A DNA stretch of 64,000 bases from Candidatus Bathyarchaeota archaeon. GTDB taxonomy: Archaea; Thermoproteota; Bathyarchaeia; Bathyarchaeales; Bathycorpusculaceae. The notes beneath the pieces are model-generated. The model was not told the DNA's origin, searched no databases, and worked only from the letters and a program-made list of their open reading frames with translations. The stretch spans positions 352,001-416,000 of the forward strand of contig CAVYES010000004.1 of assembly GCA_963767735.1 (NCBI GenBank), read 5' to 3'. Position 1 is the stretch's first letter. Each line of letters begins with the position of its first letter. A program made the position numbers and the translations under genes. Below, piece by piece: positions 32,766 to 42,501 of the stretch.

Positions 32766-33003
32766 TAAAATTCCCTCAAAATTTTTAATTGAAATTAGTA
32801 AAGCTTCAATGGTGTTATTAAAAATGTGTGGCAGTCGCTAGGCAACAACAAAAGCATATAAGCACTAACTTGCGAAGAAAAAACAAGCGGAAAGCAGGTA
32901 AACTGTTATTTTGCGAGCGTGTGCCTTTAGCAATTTTGGTCGTTTTTGCCCATTTTTAGGTCAAGGTCATTGCTGGCAAAGGATAATTATATTTAGCAGT
33001 TAA

Positions 33004-33951
<948 letters not shown>

Positions 33952-33955
33952 GCTT

Positions 33956-36172
33956 TCATGTGGAAGTGAAGCGGTCGAATGTTGCCAGGTTGCTCATGGA
34001 GCCGCACGATGGACATTTATGTAATGTTCCAAGCCAGCTTTTTTTGCAGTTATCGCAGAAACTAATTATTCGATTGTAAGTGAAGAATTCCAAAGATTGG
34101 TTTTCAATTAAGCGACGGGTTAAATCCATTACTGCTTCAGGCTTAAACTCAGCGGTCCACAACTCTATAACGCCTAAGGCGCCGCCAGCGTTTAGTCCCT
34201 TCATTTTTTGCGTTGTCTCCAACATTTCAGATGGTAGGCTGAGGGGTTCGCCAGCTTTAACTTGGAATCTTTTTGTTGTTGAGTAATAGGGTTTTTCTCT
34301 TGTTCCTGAGAACTTTACTTTGGCTACACCGTATTTTTCGATATCTAATTGGGCTAGCCGCTCTGATGCTTCAGAATCGCTCAGTATAACGGGGTATAAG
34401 CGTTTTCCATGTTTCCTGCCGATTTTCTGCTTGAAAGCCAAAATATTCTGAATTGTTTCCTCGGCAAACTTTCGGCCCTCTTCCGAATTTATGCTTTTTT
34501 CTGTAAAAGCTTCTACGGCTTCTTTGAATCCAGCTAAATTTATTATCCGTGAACAATTTTCTATCCTGAAGTATGTGTCTCCATTGGTGTTTTTTAGCAG
34601 GAAAGGCAACGAGTTTTTTCCAAATTGCTTAAGGGCAGTGTTTTTTACTCCTAAAGTTCGGGCGGCAAGTTCAAAACGTTCCCTTACCAAATCGAAAAAT
34701 TTGTTCTTGTCTTTCTCACTTTCTTGAGCGATTCTTGGCAAATTAATTGTTACACAGCCAAGGCAGCCTGTGCGGAGAGTGTCGGTTTCCCAGTCTCCAG
34801 TAAAATCAGATGCAAGTTTAACTCCTGAGGCGGAAAAAACCGTGTTTTCTGCTTCTTTTCTTACGGTGTTTGCAAAGTACGGTATTCCTTTTTCAGCTGC
34901 CAACTGGTGAACTTTGAGGAGAACCGCTTTCGCGTATTCACCTGCCAAGTCGTCTTTGCCAATTTTTATGACCAGTTTGGGGTTGAACAGTGGCTTCTGA
35001 GAACTCTCTTCGGTGAAGATTTCAATTATAAGTGACGCTAACAGTTGGCTTTCTTGGATGAAGTCCCCGTATTTGCCGCATATTTTTCCCTGAGGGCCAT
35101 ATGCTTCTTTTTCTGAGATTAATTTTGGAATTGAAAGCTCAAGCCCCAACGTTGCATTGGCATTCTGATTTAGGTTTAAGATGAATAAACGTAGGTTTTC
35201 CTTGATTCGTGATGTTTCAGCGTTTTTTGCAAAAGGTGCGAGAAAAACGTTGAAGTGGTCGCAGGTTTGAGTTCGGTTTGTTTCTTTGTTAGCATGCAGA
35301 AGAACGTTGAAGGCAACTGCCAACGCTGATTCAAAGTTGCTCGGAGACTCCATTGAAACTTGCTGTGGATTATTGAGTTTGAGGCCGTTTTGGAAGAAAA
35401 ACCTTAGGTCATGGCTGATTTCGTCTGGTTTTAGTATCCATGTGCCTAAGTTGTCGATGTGGATGGTGCCTGATAGGTGAGCGTCAGCTATGTCTCTTGG
35501 GAAAACGTTTAGCAGGGTGTACTCGCCAAGGACGGTTTGGCCTGCTTTTGTAAGCAATGTTGCGGAGTCAGCGGGGTCGTCTTTTGACTCCAATGAAGTG
35601 GTTACCTCATGTACGGGCATGCCAACTCTTGTGAGTTTATGGCGGTACTCCTCATAGCCTTTCTCAACCAAAATCCCGTTCACAATTTCCCTGATTAGGG
35701 CTGCTGTTAGGTACTTTGTTTTTGATTTAACCAGGCGTTTTTCCGCTTCTTTAGCCGCTTTCTGCGCTAATTCAGCTGGAACTTTTGCTTCTTTTATGAG
35801 TGAATTTGCTATTTTGTTTGCATCAAACTCTTCCATTGTTAAATGTGAAGTGCGTACAAGCATACCTCTGGGTTTAACCGCTTTCTTCTCAACACGGTCA
35901 GCTACGTCAAGAACCATTTTGCCAAGGTCAGTTAAATAGTATTTTTTTGATTCAACATCCGCTTCCACCAAATCTGCTTTTAACAGGAATTTTAAATGAT
36001 AAGCGAACCTGCCGGCGTCTCGGCTGGGATTCATTTTTAGCTGGTTCATCAGTTCAGTGTATGAGAGAGCGCTTTTGTCGAATAACAGGTTGAGGATTTG
36101 CAGTCTAAGAGGTGAAGAAACGGCTTTAAGCACTTTAACGCCGCGTGCACGTTGCGGAGGCTGATTTACCAT
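33956..36172 (-). CDS. ArsR-type wHTH + ATP-cone + class III ribonucleotide reductase (NrdD)-like protein lacking catalytic motifs
   Basis: HTH LKAVSSPLRLQIL...YHLKFL...YYLTDLG; ATP cone LVRTS...EEFDANKI; NrdD landmarks DAHLSGTIHI, FNVFLAPF, GDWETDTLRTG, TINLPR, PYYS and CxxC..CxxC. Likely start is ATG 36172. Confidence 0.85.
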   Translation of the reverse strand: MVNQPPQRARGVKVLKAVSSPLRLQILNLLFDKSALSYTELMNQLKMNPSRDAGRFAYHLKFLLKADLVEADVESKKYYLTDLGKMVLDVADRVEKKAVKPRGMLVRTSHLTMEEFDANKIANSLIKEAKVPAELAQKAAKEAEKRLVKSKTKYLTAALIREIVNGILVEKGYEEYRHKLTRVGMPVHEVTTSLESKDDPADSATLLTKAGQTVLGEYTLLNVFPRDIADAHLSGTIHIDNLGTWILKPDEISHDLRFFFQNGLKLNNPQQVSMESPSNFESALAVAFNVLLHANKETNRTQTCDHFNVFLAPFAKNAETSRIKENLRLFILNLNQNANATLGLELSIPKLISEKEAYGPQGKICGKYGDFIQESQLLASLIIEIFTEESSQKPLFNPKLVIKIGKDDLAGEYAKAVLLKVHQLAAEKGIPYFANTVRKEAENTVFSASGVKLASDFTGDWETDTLRTGCLGCVTINLPRIAQESEKDKNKFFDLVRERFELAARTLGVKNTALKQFGKNSLPFLLKNTNGDTYFRIENCSRIINLAGFKEAVEAFTEKSINSEEGRKFAEETIQNILAFKQKIGRKHGKRLYPVILSDSEASERLAQLDIEKYGVAKVKFSGTREKPYYSTTKRFQVKAGEPLSLPSEMLETTQKMKGLNAGGALGVIELWTAEFKPEAVMDLTRRLIENQSLEFFTYNRIISFCDNCKKSWLGTLHKCPSCGSMSNLATFDRFTST

Positions 36173-36465
36173 AACCCTTTTCCCTAGACTCCCCGATTGG
36201 TGCTCTACGCATAATTGCAATGCAGAGTTTAAACTTAACTACCTCCTTATTTTCTCATTTAGCGTATTCTTTGGTGAAAAATGGCTCATTCTGCCGCTAT
36301 TTTCAGGCGACTTCCCCTGTTACCTTAGCCTAGACAGAGGCGTAATGAGTCGCGGTATTAAGGAAAGAGTTAAAATGCAGTAAAATGATAAGCGTGCTGA
36401 TTTGACACCAAGGGAGATGCAAATAGTCTATTAACTTAAGGGATAAAGGGAATAATTTTCATCTT

Positions 36466-37127
36466 GGTGAGTTTCTTGGGTCAATGCTCTTGTTATTGCT
36501 TCAATTTCACCAGCTATTCTTTTTTACCAAATCCTAAAAACTGATCTTGCTTTGGCTGTCTTGGCAGGTGCGATTGCTACTGGTTTTACTTTATTTGCTT
36601 TAATTGAGATTTTTTCGCTAGTTTGTACTGCGCTTTTTAATCCAGCTGTAACCCTAGTATTTGCTATTGATGGCAAATTGACATGGAAGCAAGCGGGGAT
36701 TTATAGTGTAACTCAAATATTAGGAGGACTTGCAGGTCTTTTAATTTCTCAATTAATGTTTTATGATAAGATTCCCAAGCTATTTGTAATATCTAATATT
36801 TCTCGTTCAGGCGGAAGTTTTGTTGCTGAAATTCTTGTTACTTTTTTTCTTGTGATTGCCGTTTGTTCTTTGAAGGAACAAAAGTCAAACAAAATGTCGC
36901 TTGTTATCGGTTTTCTTGTTGTAGGCATGAGCCTTGCAACTTCCAGCACCATGTTTGCGAATCCTCAAGTCACCATTGCTAGAATGTTTACTTATTCTGC
37001 AGCAGGAATAACTCCTCTTGACGGCTTAGTTTTTATCGCAATGCAAATTATTGGGGCTGTTTTGGCTGTTTTCGCGTGGAGAAGCATGCGCCTCACATGC
37101 TTTGACTACAAGTGCCAAAATTCCTAA
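36466..37127 (+). pseudogene. MIP/aquaporin-family channel (NPA + NPQ), 5' frameshift
   Basis: FNPAVT and FANPQVTIARMFT motifs. The first-helix GEFLGSM (36466) is in a different frame from the rest, with the shift near 36485-36490. Confidence 0.65.
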
Positions 37128-37237: not shown

Positions 37238-40200
37238 TTGAAAGGGTTTACAATGGCTTCTTTTGGTAAAGGCAAAGAAAATCTTAGAAAGAAAGTTGAA
37301 AGTAATCAAACGGTTGTCAATCGCAAGAAAGCAGAGGTAGCTTTGGCAAGGCAGGCTGAGCTTATTGATCTTAGTCCCAATGCCATAATGGTCAGGACAT
37401 TTGAGGGTGTTATTACTTTTTGGAGTAAGGGTGCGGAGAAGCTGTATGGTTGGACAAAAGATGAAGCCATTGGCCAAGTAACTCACACACTATTTAAGAC
37501 GAAATTTTCAGTGCCGCTTGAAGAGATTGAAAAAATGCAGAAGCTGGAAGGCAAGTGGTCGGGTGAACTTACCCAAACACGCAAAGACGGCGGCAAAGTG
37601 GTTGTTCAGAGTTATCAGTTGTGCCAGTTTGTTGCAGACGGCAAAATAGTGGAAATATTAGAGTCGAATGTTGATATTACTGAGCGAAAGAAAGCGGAGG
37701 AAGCTACAGCAAGGCAAGCTGAGCTTATCGACCTTAGTCCCGATGCAATAGTTGTTAGGACATTTGAGGGTGTTATTACTTTTTGGAGTAAGGGTGCGGA
37801 GAAGCTCTATGGTTGGACAAAAGACGAGGCATTGGGCAAAGTTACTCATAGATTGCTTAAGACGGAATTTCCATTACCGCTTGAAGAGATTGAAAACAAG
37901 CAAAAGCTGGAAGGCAAGTGGTCGGGTGAACTTACCCACACACGCAAAGACGGCGGTAAAGTGGTTGTGCAGAGTTTCCAGTTGGGTCAGTTTAGTGTCG
38001 ACGGCAAAATTGAAAGCATTCTCGAATCAAACATAGACATTACTGAACACAAGCAACAAGAGCGCGAAGTTAAAAATCTCGCAAAGTTTCCCTCCGAAAA
38101 TCCTAATCCAGTATTCCGTTTAGACGGAAAAGGCACAATTCTGTATGGCAACCAAGCCGGAACTTCTTTTTTGACTGCGTGGAAGAGCAAGGTGGGCGGA
38201 CGTGTACCTAAACACATAAGTCGGCTTGTTGCCGATGCCTTAGCATCCGATAAGAATGTTGAGGTTGAAGAAACATTTGGCGCTAAGACATTTTCAATCT
38301 TGTTTGCGCCTGTCACCTTGGAAGGATACGTAAATATTTACGCGACCGACATCACTGCGCGCAAGAAGGCGGAGGAATCACTTAAAGAAAGTGAACGTCT
38401 TTATCGCAAAGTGTTTGATAATAGTCAAGACGGTTTTCAGCTAATTGAGTTAATATATGATGAGAATGGAGAACCGTACGACCACAAGTTTTTGAGAGTT
38501 AACCGTGCTTATGAAAAAATAATAGGTGCTAAAGCAAAAGATGTTATAGGCAAGACGGCAAGGCATATCTCTCCAAACTGTGAGTCTTACTGGTTTGAAA
38601 TTCCTGCACGAGTTGCTAAGACTGGAAGATCAGAACATGTTGAACTTTATAATAAAAACATAAACAAATACTTAGACTGTTACTATTTCTCGTATTCCGA
38701 AAACGCAGTTGGTACACTTTTTAGAGACGTGACTGGAAGCAAGCAAGCTCAACAAGCAATTGAAAGGCAGGCTTCACTTATCGATCTTAGTCCTGACGGC
38801 ATTATGGTTAAGAGGCCTGATGACACTGTCACTTTTTGGAGTCAGGGCGCCGAGAAACTTTACGGTTGGACCAAAGAAGAAGCCATAGGTCGAAAGACCC
38901 GAGAACTTTTCATGACTTCGTTTCCGGTTTCCTTGGCTGAGATTGTTGGTCAACTTAAGCTCATTGGGAAGTGGTCAGGAGAGCTTATCCATCATGCGAA
39001 GAATGGGAATGAAGTCATAGTTCAAAGCTCTTGGCTCGCCACATTTGATAAGCAGGGCGAATTAACCGAAATTCTCGAATCTAACGTAGATATAGGTGAA
39101 CGTAAGCAGGCTGAGGAGAGGGTGCGTGCGGCTTCGCTTTATTCAAGAACCCTGATTGAAGCGAGTCTTGATCCGCTCGTAACAATCAGTGCCGAAGGCA
39201 AAATAACCGACGTAAACAAAGCAACTGAAGACGCAACTGGCTGTTCTCGTGAACAACTTATAGGCAGCGATTTCTCGAACTATTTTACTGATTCTGAAAA
39301 AGCCAGAAAAGGTTACCGTCAAGTGTTCTCAGAGGGTTTTGTAATTGACTACCCGCTTTCGTTGTGTCATAAATCAGGGAAAGTAATTGATGTTGTTTAT
39401 AATGCAACAGTTTACAGAAATGAAAGAGGCGAAATTCAAGGTGTCTTTGCTGCGGCACGCGATATCACACAACAGAAAAAAGCTGAAGAGCAACTGCGGG
39501 CGGCGTCTCTGTATTCACGGAGCCTGATTGAGGCAAGCCTTGACCCCCTGGTAACTATTAATGTTGTGGGCAAAATCACGGACGTAAACGAATCCACCGA
39601 AGAAGTCACTGGATGCGCCCGCGAGGAACTAATCGGTAGCGACTTTTCTGATTATTTTACCGAACCAAAGAAAGCTAAAGCGGGATATAGGAGAGTATTC
39701 ACTGAGGGCTATGTTAAAGACTACCCCCTTGCGATTCGTCATAAATCAGGCAGAATAACAGATGTGCTGTATAACGCTAGCCTTTATCGGAACGAGGCAG
39801 GTGAGATTCAGGGTGTTTTTGCAGCAGCAAGAGACATCACCGAACGCAAAGCGATGGAGAACGAAATCAAAGAAACAATGGAAAAACTTCAACTATCTAA
39901 TGCCGAACTGGAACAATTCGCGTATGTAGCATCGCATGATTTGCAAGAGCCTTTGCGTATGGTAGCAAGTTATGTTCAGCTGTTAGAGCGTAGATATAAA
40001 GGGAAACTAGACCCAGAGGCTGACGAGTTCATCGCCTACGCCGTGGACGGTGCCAACCGAATGCGAGGCTTAATTGATGACCTCCTAACTTACTCGCGGG
40101 TTAGCAGACTTGGCAAGCCCTTTGAACCAACAAACCTTGAATCAACGCTTGACGCCGCTCTTAAGAACCTGAAAGTATCCATTGCTGAAAACGGTGCAGT

Positions 40201-40597
40201 GGTGACGCATGATAAGCTCCCCGTAGTTATGGCTGATGGGGGGCAGCTTGTTCAGCTGCTTCAAAATTTGATTGGCAACGCCATAAAGTTCCATGGTAAG
40301 GAGCTGCCGCGTGTTCACGTATCAGCTAAGTCTCAAGAAAAAGACTATTTGTTCTCCGTGAAGGATAACGGCATTGGCATAGCACCTGAATACTATAATA
40401 GACTTTTCAAGATTTTCCAGCGCCTTCACACCCGAGAGGAATATCCTGGCTTAGGAATTGGCCTTGCAGTCTGCAAAAGAATCGTTGAGCGCCATGGCGG
40501 ACGTATCTGGATTGAGTCGCAGGTAGGGAAAGGTTCAACTATCTATTTTACATTAAACAAACAAAAAGGAGTGATTAAGCAAAATGAAAAGGATTGA
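37238..40597 (+). CDS. Multi-PAS cytoplasmic sensor histidine kinase (Cph1-like HisKA)
   Basis: About seven PAS/PAC units; H-box FAYVASHDLQEPLR; N-box NLIGNAIKF; G boxes DNGIG and GIGLA. Confidence 0.95.
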   Translation: MKGFTMASFGKGKENLRKKVESNQTVVNRKKAEVALARQAELIDLSPNAIMVRTFEGVITFWSKGAEKLYGWTKDEAIGQVTHTLFKTKFSVPLEEIEKMQKLEGKWSGELTQTRKDGGKVVVQSYQLCQFVADGKIVEILESNVDITERKKAEEATARQAELIDLSPDAIVVRTFEGVITFWSKGAEKLYGWTKDEALGKVTHRLLKTEFPLPLEEIENKQKLEGKWSGELTHTRKDGGKVVVQSFQLGQFSVDGKIESILESNIDITEHKQQEREVKNLAKFPSENPNPVFRLDGKGTILYGNQAGTSFLTAWKSKVGGRVPKHISRLVADALASDKNVEVEETFGAKTFSILFAPVTLEGYVNIYATDITARKKAEESLKESERLYRKVFDNSQDGFQLIELIYDENGEPYDHKFLRVNRAYEKIIGAKAKDVIGKTARHISPNCESYWFEIPARVAKTGRSEHVELYNKNINKYLDCYYFSYSENAVGTLFRDVTGSKQAQQAIERQASLIDLSPDGIMVKRPDDTVTFWSQGAEKLYGWTKEEAIGRKTRELFMTSFPVSLAEIVGQLKLIGKWSGELIHHAKNGNEVIVQSSWLATFDKQGELTEILESNVDIGERKQAEERVRAASLYSRTLIEASLDPLVTISAEGKITDVNKATEDATGCSREQLIGSDFSNYFTDSEKARKGYRQVFSEGFVIDYPLSLCHKSGKVIDVVYNATVYRNERGEIQGVFAAARDITQQKKAEEQLRAASLYSRSLIEASLDPLVTINVVGKITDVNESTEEVTGCAREELIGSDFSDYFTEPKKAKAGYRRVFTEGYVKDYPLAIRHKSGRITDVLYNASLYRNEAGEIQGVFAAARDITERKAMENEIKETMEKLQLSNAELEQFAYVASHDLQEPLRMVASYVQLLERRYKGKLDPEADEFIAYAVDGANRMRGLIDDLLTYSRVSRLGKPFEPTNLESTLDAALKNLKVSIAENGAVVTHDKLPVVMADGGQLVQLLQNLIGNAIKFHGKELPRVHVSAKSQEKDYLFSVKDNGIGIAPEYYNRLFKIFQRLHTREEYPGLGIGLAVCKRIVERHGGRIWIESQVGKGSTIYFTLNKQKGVIKQNEKD
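37346..38071 (+). repeat. Tandem 363-bp intragenic duplication of a PAS-PAC unit
   Basis: Copies start at 37346 and 37709 and share long identical nucleotide stretches. Confidence 0.8.
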
Positions 40598-41030
40598 CGC
40601 AACAGCAGTGGACATTTTATTAGTGGAAGACAACCCTGGAGACGTTCGCTTAACCAAAGAAGCCTTGAAAGACGCAAAAGTGCTAAACGAAATTTACGTG
40701 GCTAGAGACGGCGTTGAAGCAATGGAATTCTTGAACAAAAAAGGATCATTTAAAGAAGCTCCTACTCCCGACATGATTCTATTAGACTTAAACTTGCCAA
40801 GAAAAGATGGGCGCGAAGTCCTAGCTGAAATTAAAAAAGACCCAAAACTCAAGCATATTCCTGTGATTATCCTGACAACATCCAAGGCTGACGAAGACAT
40901 TGTCAAGACATACAATTTACACGCAAACGCCTACATTACCAAACCAGTTGACTTAAACCGATTCGTTGAGATTATGCATGCTCTGGAAGAGTTCTGGTTT
41001 ACAATAGTAAAACTGCCACCAAAGGAGTAA
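40584..41030 (+). CDS. Single-domain response regulator (Rcp1-like)
   Basis: LLVEDN, LLDLNLP, LTTS, YITKP. Confidence 0.95.
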   Translation: MKRIDATAVDILLVEDNPGDVRLTKEALKDAKVLNEIYVARDGVEAMEFLNKKGSFKEAPTPDMILLDLNLPRKDGREVLAEIKKDPKLKHIPVIILTTSKADEDIVKTYNLHANAYITKPVDLNRFVEIMHALEEFWFTIVKLPPKE

Positions 41031-41037
41031 CTAAAAA

Positions 41038-42501
41038 ATTAGAATCCTTTTAATTGAAGACAATGCCGGCGACGCCAGGCTCATCCACGAGATGTTGGCT
41101 GAAGAAAAATTTGATGTACACGATATTGAGCGCGTTGACAGGCTTTCAAGAGGATTAGACCGTTTGGCAGCAGGTGGCATAGATGCAATTCTGCTTGACC
41201 TTGGATTGCCTGACAGTCAGGGTCTAAGTACCTTTGAAAAGATGTATGCAGCGAGTAAACAAGTACCTATTTTGATATTAACTGCATTCAAGGATGATGC
41301 ATTAGCTTTAGAAGCAGTCCGAAGAGGCGCACAAGATTATCTCATCAAAGGAAAAATTGACGCCGCTTTGCTAATTAGAGCTATAACCTACGCTATTGAA
41401 CGCGAAAAACTAGATGAAGCCTTAAAAAGGCAGGCAGAACTCATTGATCTCAGTCCCGACGCTATCATTATAAAAAAACCAGATGACACTATTACCTTCT
41501 GGAGCTCGGGCGCAGAAAAATTATACGGGTGGAGCAAGGCTCAAGCTATCGGACAAAAGGCCAATACGCTTTTTAATCCAAAGTTTTCAATGCCGTTTGA
41601 CGACATAAATCGTCAGCTAAAGCAAGAAGGCAAATGGTCAGGGGAATTTACTCATCAAACTAAACTTGGGCGCGCAGTAGCAGTTCAAAGTTACTGGTTA
41701 GCCAAATTTAATGAACAGGGAGAAATAGCGGAAATATTCGAGTCAAACGTGGATATCACCGAACGCAAAGATGCTGAACGTTTGGCCGCTATTGGTGCTA
41801 CAGCTGGCATGGTTGGGCATGATATACGCAATCCATTGCAAGCTATAGTTGGCGAAATATTTCTGTCAAAAAAAGAAATAGACGATTTGCCTGAAAGTGA
41901 AGCCAAGAAGTACCTTAAAGATAGCATCCAATCTATTGAAGATAACATATTTTATATTGACAAGATCGTTCGTGATCTACAAGATTACGCTAAACCCTTA
42001 ATGTCTTCTATTGAAGAAACCGATTTCACAAAGCTTGTTGAAGACGTTTTCTCCGGCTTAAAAGTTCCTGAAAACATAAATGTTGTTTATTCCATTGAGC
42101 CTTGTTTTACAAAACTTATGACTGACTCTTCAGCTATGAAGAGGATTCTAACAAACCTAAGCTCAAACGCAATTCAAGCCATGCCTAAAGGCGGAAAATT
42201 AACCTTGGATGCTGCCTACAAAGATGACAAGATATTCATAAGCATCCAGGATACAGGCTTGGGTATACCCGATGAAACTAAAGATAAACTTTTCAAGCCC
42301 TTATTTACAACTAAATCTAAAGGGCAAGGTTTCGGTTTAGCAGTAGTCAAAAAGCTAACTGAAGCATTAAATGGTAAGGTAAGCGTTGAAAGTGAGGTTG
42401 GAAAAGGCTCCCGCTTCACCGTTGAATTTCCTCTCCAAAAAATAACCACTCCTATTAGCCGTGTCCGCCTCAAGAATGCTGAGGTTCACCACCCCGCATA
42501 A
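41038..42501 (+). CDS. Hybrid receiver-PAS-histidine kinase (possible ATT start at 41038; first ATG 41092)
   Basis: Receiver strand 1 IRILLIEDN lies upstream of the ATG. LLDLGLPD, PAS, GHDIRNPL, NAIQA, DTGLG, GFGL. Confidence 0.9.
   Translation: MRILLIEDNAGDARLIHEMLAEEKFDVHDIERVDRLSRGLDRLAAGGIDAILLDLGLPDSQGLSTFEKMYAASKQVPILILTAFKDDALALEAVRRGAQDYLIKGKIDAALLIRAITYAIEREKLDEALKRQAELIDLSPDAIIIKKPDDTITFWSSGAEKLYGWSKAQAIGQKANTLFNPKFSMPFDDINRQLKQEGKWSGEFTHQTKLGRAVAVQSYWLAKFNEQGEIAEIFESNVDITERKDAERLAAIGATAGMVGHDIRNPLQAIVGEIFLSKKEIDDLPESEAKKYLKDSIQSIEDNIFYIDKIVRDLQDYAKPLMSSIEETDFTKLVEDVFSGLKVPENINVVYSIEPCFTKLMTDSSAMKRILTNLSSNAIQAMPKGGKLTLDAAYKDDKIFISIQDTGLGIPDETKDKLFKPLFTTKSKGQGFGLAVVKKLTEALNGKVSVESEVGKGSRFTVEFPLQKITTPISRVRLKNAEVHHPA

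Follow-up and report, generated by a model that had tools for sequence, protein, structure and literature searches.

An intact, non-catalytic NrdD paralogue with a fused winged helix in Bathyarchaeia is a candidate regulator of nucleotide-supply genes

A gene annotated by public sources as an anaerobic ribonucleoside-triphosphate reductase raises the question of what such a protein does once the residues of its radical chemistry are gone. The gene lies in a stretch of 64,000 nucleotides from Candidatus Bathyarchaeota archaeon (contig CAVYES010000004.1, positions 352,001 to 416,000 of the forward strand), which we analysed as a whole and term the window. An initial annotation, made from the letters of the window, had read its product as a class III ribonucleotide reductase (RNR), NrdD, that has turned into a DNA-binding pseudoenzyme. 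Is it a reductase, a decaying copy of one, or a protein with another function? Our analysis shows that the gene is an intact and conserved non-catalytic paralogue of NrdD, and not a product of decay. On balance, we consider its product more likely than not to be a nucleotide-sensing, DNA-binding regulator of nucleotide-supply genes, which would make it an analogue of NrdR and not a member of the NrdR family. The gene and its parts are the following (window coordinates):

33956..36172, (-) strand: coding sequence (CDS) of the protein with winged helix-turn-helix (wHTH), ATP-cone and dead NrdD, 738 amino acids plus stop, defined by its open frame, translation and domains
35879..36133, (-) strand: winged helix-turn-helix, ArsR-like / DUF7347, residues 14-98, from the PF24038 and PF01022 matches and the AlphaFold2 (AF2) model
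35633..35860, (-) strand: ATP-cone-like domain, residues 105-180, from PF03477, ending in a near-invariant E-E-Y-R-H-K-L-T-R-x-G segment
34073..35557, (-) strand: NrdD-type barrel without radical residues, residues 206-700, from PF13597, a profile comparison with solved NrdDs, and Foldseek
34004..34057, (-) strand: the two Cys pairs of the zinc ribbon (C706/C709, C720/C723), which align with the CxxC pairs of the T4 and T. maritima NrdDs

The frame translates without an internal stop into 738 amino acids that end in ...ATFDRFTST, followed by the stop codon. An alternative start, TTG, lies 16 codons before the ATG at 36172. Since the orthologues share the MVNQPP... start with the window protein and diverge further upstream, where a conserved promoter block lies, we take the ATG as the start. 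Pfam recognizes the DUF7347 winged helix (PF24038; residues 14-89, 32 bits, cut-off 27.6), the ArsR-type helix-turn-helix HTH_5 (PF01022; residues 20-70, 29.1 bits, cut-off 22), an ATP-cone (PF03477; residues 105-176, 29.3 bits, cut-off 25.8) and NRDD (PF13597; residues 206-734, 229 bits). Canonical NrdD relatives reach 475-571 bits on the last of these profiles, and in an NCBIfam scan the window protein scores 234.3 bits with the NrdD equivalog TIGR02487, which is under the cut-off of 326.35. Thus, translation and Pfam bear out the intact frame with ArsR-type wHTH, ATP-cone, NrdD barrel and CxxC..CxxC site that had been described initially. The same architecture is found throughout the family: all 52 sampled members have the DUF7347 winged helix, in line with the earlier view of a gained domain, all 52 have NRDD, 51 have the ATP-cone and 31 have HTH_5. 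A profile of the family matches solved NrdDs with E-values of 7.5e-45 to 1.3e-33. The solved sequence nearest to the winged helix is HlyU, and this similarity is marginal (E 0.045-0.2).

Could the protein still carry out radical chemistry? According to excerpts of a preprint on RNR phylogeny, 1375 class III sequences carry MGCR or MCCR with the catalytic Cys in third position, and the Cys of strand beta-A is 92.6% conserved. As references for the motifs we used the canonical NrdD of the same genome, relatives recovered in our searches and HMMER alignments to solved NrdDs. Three remnants of catalytic motifs were located:

35408..35428, (-) strand: remnant of the beta-A Cys motif, P249-D-E-I-S-H-D255, in which E251 replaces the Cys, from the alignments
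34814..34837, (-) strand: finger-loop remnant, residues 446-453 F-S-A-S-G-V-K-L, without Cys, from BLASTP, MAFFT and profile alignments
33956..33976, (-) strand: cut-off remnant of the glycyl-radical loop, D733-R-F-T-S-T738 plus stop, with S737 at the position of the radical Gly, from the alignments

In BLASTP against the genome's own NrdD, the finger loop S-M-C-C-R pairs with A448-S449-G450-V451-K452, the ASGVK of the initial annotation. MAFFT and the family-profile alignment, which includes the S. thermophilus NrdD, move the loop by one or two residues and place the catalytic Cys at S449 and G450, respectively, where BLASTP has V451. Residues 444-456 are devoid of Cys, so that none of the three alignments supplies one. 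BLASTP also pairs the beta-A segment Y-C-V-G-W-D of the own NrdD with D250-E251-I252-S253-H254-D255, and MAFFT finds L-S-D-S-E at the TPAE(G/S) site; both substitutions had been read in this way before. For the glycyl loop, the alignments agree with the earlier reading of SRITGY as DRFTST plus stop: R-V-V-G-Y of the own NrdD, or R-I-T-G-Y of P. copri and archaeal NrdDs, pairs with R734-F-T-S737-T738, and the frame then stops, 15 residues past the last CxxC. The window protein keeps the four zinc Cys (C706, C709, C720, C723) and, in its barrel, the NrdD framework motifs A-H-x-S-G-x-I-H, N-L-P-R-I-A, R-L-A-x-L-D, P-Y-Y and G-G. It is like the NrdDs of S. thermophilus (9d3x), P. copri (8p23), T. 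maritima (4coi) and phage T4 (1h78) in its barrel fold, framework motifs and four-Cys zinc ribbon, and like neighbouring archaeal NrdDs in its N-terminal ATP-cone of the V-R-T-S type. It is unlike them in that it has neither the finger-loop Cys nor the beta-A Cys nor the glycyl-radical Gly, in its cut-off glycyl domain, in its TIGR02487 score below the cut-off, in its extra winged helix and in the occurrence of its family in genomes without a canonical NrdD.

These losses are widespread in the family. We surveyed the corresponding columns in 122 aligned sequences, consisting of 71 intact orthologues and 51 diverse members. The four zinc Cys are present in 122 of 122. In the E251 column, at the beta-A Cys position, Glu is found in 86 members and Cys in none, and G450 is kept in 103. 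The V451 column, which corresponds to the finger-loop Cys, holds V (34), L (16), I (13), C (11), T (11), F (10) and S (10); the 11 members with Cys read S-G-C-K/R, which resembles M-G-C-R. At the position of the radical Gly, the S737 column holds S (57), G (18) and A (10), and 10 of the 18 Gly-bearing sequences are diverse members with a full-length C-terminal domain, e.g. R-R-L-G-Y in P0170. Cys and Gly together are found in 0 of the 122 and neither of them in 93. That an intact gene has lost its radical machinery, as proposed initially, is supported by this absence and by the purifying selection described next.

Is the gene nevertheless on its way to becoming a pseudogene, or is it a real nrdD that appears dead only through truncation or faulty assembly? 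Its frame does stop exactly at the glycyl-loop position, and a few relatives carry in-frame stops. However, among 76 orthologous genes taken from the best 80 loci, which come from independent assemblies, 67 terminate exactly 15 residues after the last CxxC, usually with ...F-D-R-F-x-S-T. The 80 loci are labelled Bathyarchaeota, Bathyarchaeia or Bathycorpusculum, bar three Nitrososphaerota, three 'uncultured archaeon' and one miscellaneous Crenarchaeota group-6. The best 120 relatives listed from a large protein collection (76-98% identity) are 676-773 amino acids long, mostly 738-739, and the family groups in a single clade of 76 rows. The ratio of non-synonymous to synonymous substitution rates (dN/dS; Nei-Gojobori, 20 orthologues, median of usable pairs) is 0.086 for the whole protein. 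By region it is 0.033 in the winged helix, the lowest of all, 0.064 in the ATP-cone plus linker, 0.101 in the barrel and 0.082 in the C-terminus. Because of the common end point, a dN/dS of about 0.09 and the recurrence of relatives across the phylum (192 of the 301 genomes sampled), decay does not explain the gene, and the chance that it is a pseudogene or an artefact is negligible.

The regional values also bear on the idea that the old barrel might house a new, non-radical nucleotide activity. Purifying selection on the barrel (dN/dS 0.10) and its retained framework motifs would suit such an enzyme. The former active-site columns (251, 451 and 737) are, however, among the most variable, unlike a catalytic centre, and a fused and highly conserved winged helix is unexpected for a simple enzyme, which is why we consider a new enzyme very improbable. 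An alignment of 52 members that reaches down to 25% identity has most of its invariant columns in the winged helix (L30, H59, Y78, G84), in the cone region with its E-E-Y-R-H-K-L-T-R-x-G end (V106, R107, F116, I121, L125, E128, R161, L168, R177, R182, G184) and at the four zinc Cys. The motif of the putative recognition helix, residues ~49-65 of the window protein (..RDAGRFAYHLKFL..), is strongly conserved across very distant lineages. Finally, short contigs of four metatranscriptome runs (two studies), runs that were themselves found using the window gene, match within the CDS; with DNA carry-over possible, they are a weak hint of expression, and parts of the stretch that no contig covers carry no information.

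How far does the family extend? A match is found in 23 of the 24 other genomes of the window's genus, the exception (G020) being 65% complete. Fifteen other genera of the order are represented by 16 genomes, each of which carries a near-full-length copy of 40-47% identity. In a collection with one genome per species, 595 of the 600 pattern matches listed encode a relative. The survey of the phylum used an even sample of 301 genomes and scored as a match any E <=1e-20 to a Nitrososphaerales-type member. By this measure family f19, whose genomes are ~1.6 Mb and in many cases closed, has a relative in 45 of 45 genomes, and several other families have none (0/14, 0/20, 0/11, 0/11). The source labels of cluster members include Nitrososphaerales, Nitrososphaeraceae, Thermoprotei, Baldrarchaeota, Promethearchaeota and Helarchaeota, and also one 3.6-kb contig binned as Dormibacteraeota, which we regard as doubtful.

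A FastTree tree places 69 winged-helix members and 7 N-terminally short rows in one clade (76 rows; local support 98), and all 13 catalytic NrdDs outside it, in the other group. Basal members have a complete C-terminal domain, often keep the Gly and have no Cys. Read on this tree, which has no secure root, the sequences suggest that the Cys was lost first, that the glycyl loop then decayed, and that the C-terminal domain was finally cut off in the window's clade. Three proteins with a long N-terminus that have both Cys and Gly, considered as active NrdDs with a helix-turn-helix, carry a second ATP-cone in place of the winged helix; relatives of 1146-1603 amino acids, considered as dead copies with inteins, are in 6 of 6 cases canonical NrdDs with inteins and without a winged helix. 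We also observed a second NrdD-like type without the Cys and Gly motifs (P0197, P0205, P0234, also P0204, P0240, P0257). P0197, P0205 and P0234 are like the window family in their barrel and in having kept ATP-cones, of which they have two, and unlike it in that they have no winged helix or other DNA-binding domain and fall outside the 76-row clade. Most proteins of this Cys- and Gly-less type branch beside catalytic NrdDs, outside the winged-helix clade; P0240 branches off first within the group of 76 winged-helix rows. In the literature that we searched, an NrdD that is catalytically dead or fused to a winged helix is nowhere described.

What could the winged helix contribute? We modelled the protein with AF2, using 52 family members as input (predicted local distance difference test, pLDDT, 89; predicted template modelling score, pTM, 0.80). 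The sole weak spot of the model is residues 99-102, a low-confidence tether between winged helix and cone. The winged helix itself (pLDDT 86-92) consists of helices 6-17, 21-33, 38-44 and 49-65, strands 69-72 and 77-80, and helix 82-98. A helix, hairpin, helix layout of this kind corresponds to the ArsR/SmtB reference topology and is typical of DNA binders. As modelled, with three helices, a recognition helix, a hairpin and a last helix, and with its match over the cut-off to the corresponding HMM (PF01022), the domain is like the ArsR/SmtB regulators; the window protein is unlike them in that the winged helix is only the N-terminal 100 of 738 residues and in its marginal similarity to solved members. 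Foldseek returns class III RNRs as all of the best solved-structure matches (target template modelling score 0.6-0.75). A complex prediction for two copies of residues 1-205, run without controls, gave a median score of 0.27 against a mark of 0.42.

If the window protein is not a reductase, which protein is? Contig C10 of the same genome, a different contig from that of the window gene, carries a cluster of nrdR, with NrdR zinc ribbon (PF22811, 56.3 bits) and ATP-cone, a canonical nrdD (M-C-C-R, R-V-V-G-Y) and, following the latter, a radical S-adenosylmethionine nrdG. Hence a separate catalytic RNR exists, a point that the initial annotation had asked to be checked. A class I/II RNR barrel was not found in this genome, which is 94.9% complete. 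The canonical nrdD is read in two frames, as open reading frames (ORFs) of 614 and 151 amino acids (L001 ~2880-2900), with a one-base shift near ...L-P-V-D-F / T-S-A-G-D-L-F..., and since it is the sole RNR found in the genome, we take this as a probable assembly error. A similarly shortened nrdD frame of 570 amino acids was seen in G015. The nrdR-nrdD-nrdG cluster is of a bacterial type, here in an archaeal genus. NrdR scores over the cut-off in 23 of the 24 other genomes of the genus, compared to 2 of 16 genomes of other genera in the order; excerpts of a 2022 paper call NrdR 'rare in archaea' (PMC9110341). Upstream of nrdR, a TATA-like box followed by ..T-G-T-A-G-T-G-T.. and ..A-C-A-C-T-A.. 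elements is present in 21 of 21 upstream regions of the genus. The core words of these NrdR-box-like elements (..TGTAGTGT.. and ..ACACTA..; L001 ~625-690 and, in 20 genomes of the genus, L114-L133) start ~23 nt apart, and the 16-nt elements are centred roughly three helix turns apart. This arrangement agrees with the layout described in the same excerpts, in which two NrdR boxes lie ~three helix turns apart and overlap the transcription start (PMC9110341).

The proposal that the window protein is an archaeal analogue of NrdR calls for caution in this genome. Like NrdR (TIGR00244), the bacterial repressor specific to RNR, which consists of a Zn ribbon and an ATP-cone, it joins a DNA-binding-type domain to an ATP-cone and is encoded beside RNR genes in several lineages, and by analogy its logic may be the same, namely nucleotide-dependent control of nucleotide-supply genes. 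Unlike NrdR, it has a winged helix instead of a zinc ribbon (no PF22811 match) and in addition a dead RNR barrel of 530 residues, and the NCBIfam scan found no TIGR00244 match to it at E <=1. The two are not plain substitutes here, since the window protein shares this genome with a genuine NrdR, as it does 23 of the 24 other genomes of the genus.

Which genes accompany the family? The gene immediately downstream in the window is the following:

33031..33951, (+) strand: pyrB, which encodes the catalytic chain of aspartate carbamoyltransferase; convergent, with 4 bases between it and the stop codon of the window gene, from Pfam OTCace_N and OTCace

The initial annotation had noted this convergent pyrB, and the arrangement turns out to be conserved and not a coincidence. 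In 73 of the 80 closest loci, a pyrB on the opposite strand ends no more than ~300 nt, and in most cases no more than 50 nt, downstream of the gene; the other seven comprise five with too little flank and two that are rearranged. Of five distant genomes, two, from two distant families, have a convergent pyrB again (dead-NrdD protein 31-33% identity). A third has a convergent pyrI and a divergent gene of the amino-acid-kinase family, which may belong with UMP kinase, a member of that family, and a fourth has a divergent carbamoyltransferase of uncertain type. This conserved context suggests a functional link between pyrB and the window gene. As a side observation, the majority of 67 related loci share a strongly conserved pyrB promoter and leader upstream of the gene (~32975-33030 in the window; ..GTTATTTAGCAGTTAACGGCTTTCTTGTTTTTAGGTG..); a T-rich leader next to the pyrB start recalls the UTP-sensitive control of pyr genes in bacteria.

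RNR genes recur as well. As initially stated, no nrdG adjoins the window gene, the neighbours of which are pyrB and an MIP-like ORF. In six of eight loci from other genera of the order, a catalytic nrdD (W-S-R-I/V-T-G-Y) comes next on the same strand, and pyrB converges from its far side. A glutaredoxin-like ORF lies between the dead-NrdD gene and nrdD; it is listed in L016 and L017 and was seen in the intergenic DNA of L019 and L020. It carries C-P-R-C or C-T-R-C in these four loci, and a small redoxin ORF in this place suggests a redoxin-dependent class III RNR in these genera. L046 has a weak NrdD-like match (23-28% identity) ~2 kb downstream of the gene. In f19, five of five genomes (99% complete) have the dead protein as their only NRDD match (67-75 bits), and each of the five has, ~1 kb downstream and in the same orientation, a frame of 883-910 codons that encodes a PF02867 barrel; the one checked also has an ATP-cone. 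G057 also carries the dead protein and has no canonical NrdD.

Because the protein occurs in genomes without a canonical NrdD, the formation of NrdD heterodimers cannot be its general role. It is not a partner-dependent protein of NrdD, and the suggestion of an 'inhibitory partner of the real NrdD' is not well supported in view of the five 99%-complete genomes and G057. A broader version of this idea is a nucleotide-binding regulator that acts through protein contacts, by modulating RNR or aspartate carbamoyltransferase or by sequestering nucleotides; the winged helix would then be an interaction module for proteins or RNA. The NrdD framework motifs are kept, so that an NrdD-type dimer and nucleotide sites may persist, the linkage to nrdD, nrdH, pyrB and pyrI is tight, and searches for an operator found none (see below). 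Yet the family is present in genomes without any canonical NrdD, and its winged helix is the most constrained region (dN/dS 0.033) and has an ArsR-like layout in the model. Regulation by protein contacts is thus unlikely in our view, albeit less so than a new enzyme.

A regulator that binds DNA, which we prefer, might work as follows. The barrel, zinc ribbon and ATP-cone-like domain would have been kept as a nucleotide-binding, dimerising body when the radical machinery was lost, and the flexibly tethered N-terminal ArsR-like winged helix would provide DNA binding. Class III RNRs are dimers with their specificity sites at the dimer interface, and because of this a dimeric body would present two winged helices to DNA, which would most likely be bound by a dimer or a higher oligomer. 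Nucleotide bound in the cone, and possibly in the old effector or substrate pockets, would alter the geometry of the oligomer and thereby DNA binding. Excerpts of the NrdR paper show this logic, a nucleotide-driven change of oligomer that controls DNA binding, for NrdR (PMC9110341). Transcription would in this manner be tuned, by activation or repression, at RNR genes in many lineages and probably in the pyrB/pyrI region. For the genome of the window, control of pyrimidine genes or autoregulation appears more likely than control of RNR, because NrdR is already on its only RNR operon.

Where might such a protein bind? Two conserved blocks lie upstream of the gene:

36222..36241, (-) strand: conserved promoter block with TATA-like TTTAAA, 61 nt upstream of the ATG, from 71 anchored orthologous upstream regions
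36203..36216, (-) strand: second conserved block, close to where transcription is expected to start; relatives have the consensus ..AATWATAGGTAG..

We read the first as a putative TFB-recognition element (BRE) and TATA box; the second could correspond to an operator or to the initiator region. Across the 3.04-Mb genome, the 20-nt promoter block is unique at <=3 mismatches and has five further, unrelated-looking matches at 4, and degenerate forms of the second block give 0-5 scattered genome matches. The search for inverted repeats upstream of the gene found one weak case only (79% complementary), away from the promoter, and no convincing motif common to the own promoter and the upstream regions of pyrB and nrdR was found. 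In other loci, candidate words were noted by eye or against a limited comparison: the nrdH/nrdD upstream regions of six loci from other genera contain TACA-N2-ATTTTATA-like and TAGAATWAT-like motifs (by eye, no background). In f19 (L108-L113), GATC words (AAACTGATC, TTGATC) reach 18.9 per kb in the gene flanks (220 nt upstream plus 300 nt downstream) as opposed to 4.6 per kb elsewhere in the loci, the rest of the same loci being the only comparison; this enrichment is absent in the window.

Several findings weigh against a DNA-binding, nucleotide-sensing regulator of this kind. No DNA-binding site was identified, and the blocks of the own promoter resemble a core promoter, are non-palindromic and are single-copy in the genome. 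Classical ATP-cones carry a K-R-D-G nucleotide-binding motif at their N-terminus. The cone of the window protein reads V-R-T-S instead (V106-R-T-S-H, compared to V-R-K-K-D-G in the NrdR and V-L-K-R-D-S in the NrdD of the same genome), and its PF03477 score is barely over the cut-off. The V-R-T-S form is common to the archaeal catalytic NrdDs P0186, P0208 and P0210 and the NrdD in locus L018. A sequence search with the cone segment alone against solved structures gave chance matches only (best E 0.076). The sole RNR cluster of the genome already has NrdR and NrdR-box-like sites, so that control of RNR by the window protein is not required there. Moreover, a convergent, tail-to-tail neighbour is an unusual layout for a regulator and its target, an RNR gene is adjacent in none of five further genomes from five other families, and a full canonical nrdD stands beside the gene in none of the 80 closest loci. 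Finally, some copies are broken, from which it follows that the gene is not indispensable everywhere: several stops interrupt the sole copy of G022 (G022:C15:47582-49779) and likewise the second of two copies in G004 (G004:C4:3071-5286), and L036 has five in-frame stops, with a degraded pyrB (39% identity) alongside.

Some of the same observations would fit a protein that associates with DNA and links nucleotide pools to processes such as the initiation of replication, repair or the state of chromatin, and not to the transcription of supply genes. The family is near-universal in whole families with or without an adjacent RNR gene (f19 45/45; 192/301), the motif of its recognition helix is highly conserved over very distant lineages, and control of RNR in this genome is already covered by NrdR. 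Against this, replication or repair genes do not recur beside the gene in the loci examined, and the recurrent neighbours are nucleotide-synthesis genes; we rate this explanation as improbable.

The regulator of nucleotide-supply genes that we favour also has a more far-reaching form, which we put forward tentatively, as it is in our estimate somewhat less than probable. One ancient family, spread over the Thermoproteota (Bathyarchaeia, ammonia-oxidising Nitrososphaeria and Thermoprotei) and labelled in Asgard, would be an archaeal master regulator of nucleotide supply. Its cone and its former effector and substrate pockets would read the pools of nucleoside triphosphates (NTPs) and deoxynucleoside triphosphates (dNTPs), and its winged helix would coordinate RNR genes of any class with aspartate carbamoyltransferase.

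Further genes of the window lie on the other side of the gene. For the MIP/aquaporin-like ORF at 36552-37127 (+), the Pfam match begins only at position 43 of the 222 of the profile; either the start of this ORF is wrongly called or its N-terminus is truncated, and it is not conserved beside the gene in related loci. The region 37238-42501 (+) encodes a histidine kinase of 1119 amino acids with multiple PAS domains (for a given PAS family, Pfam lists up to five stretches), which holds two near-duplicate stretches of ~100 residues each, and after it a response-regulator receiver and a hybrid receiver-PAS-kinase.

The control of RNR and of nucleotide-supply genes in archaea is largely unknown, and the family described here is a concrete candidate for a regulator of both. 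Its annotation as class III RNR can wrongly credit genomes with this enzyme, as illustrated by the five f19 genomes that we checked, in which the real reductase is of the class I/II type. For the evolution of the NrdD family, the protein offers a case of a radical enzyme that turns into a pseudoenzyme in stages. Should nucleotide and DNA binding prove true, it would possibly be a natural dNTP-responsive switch.

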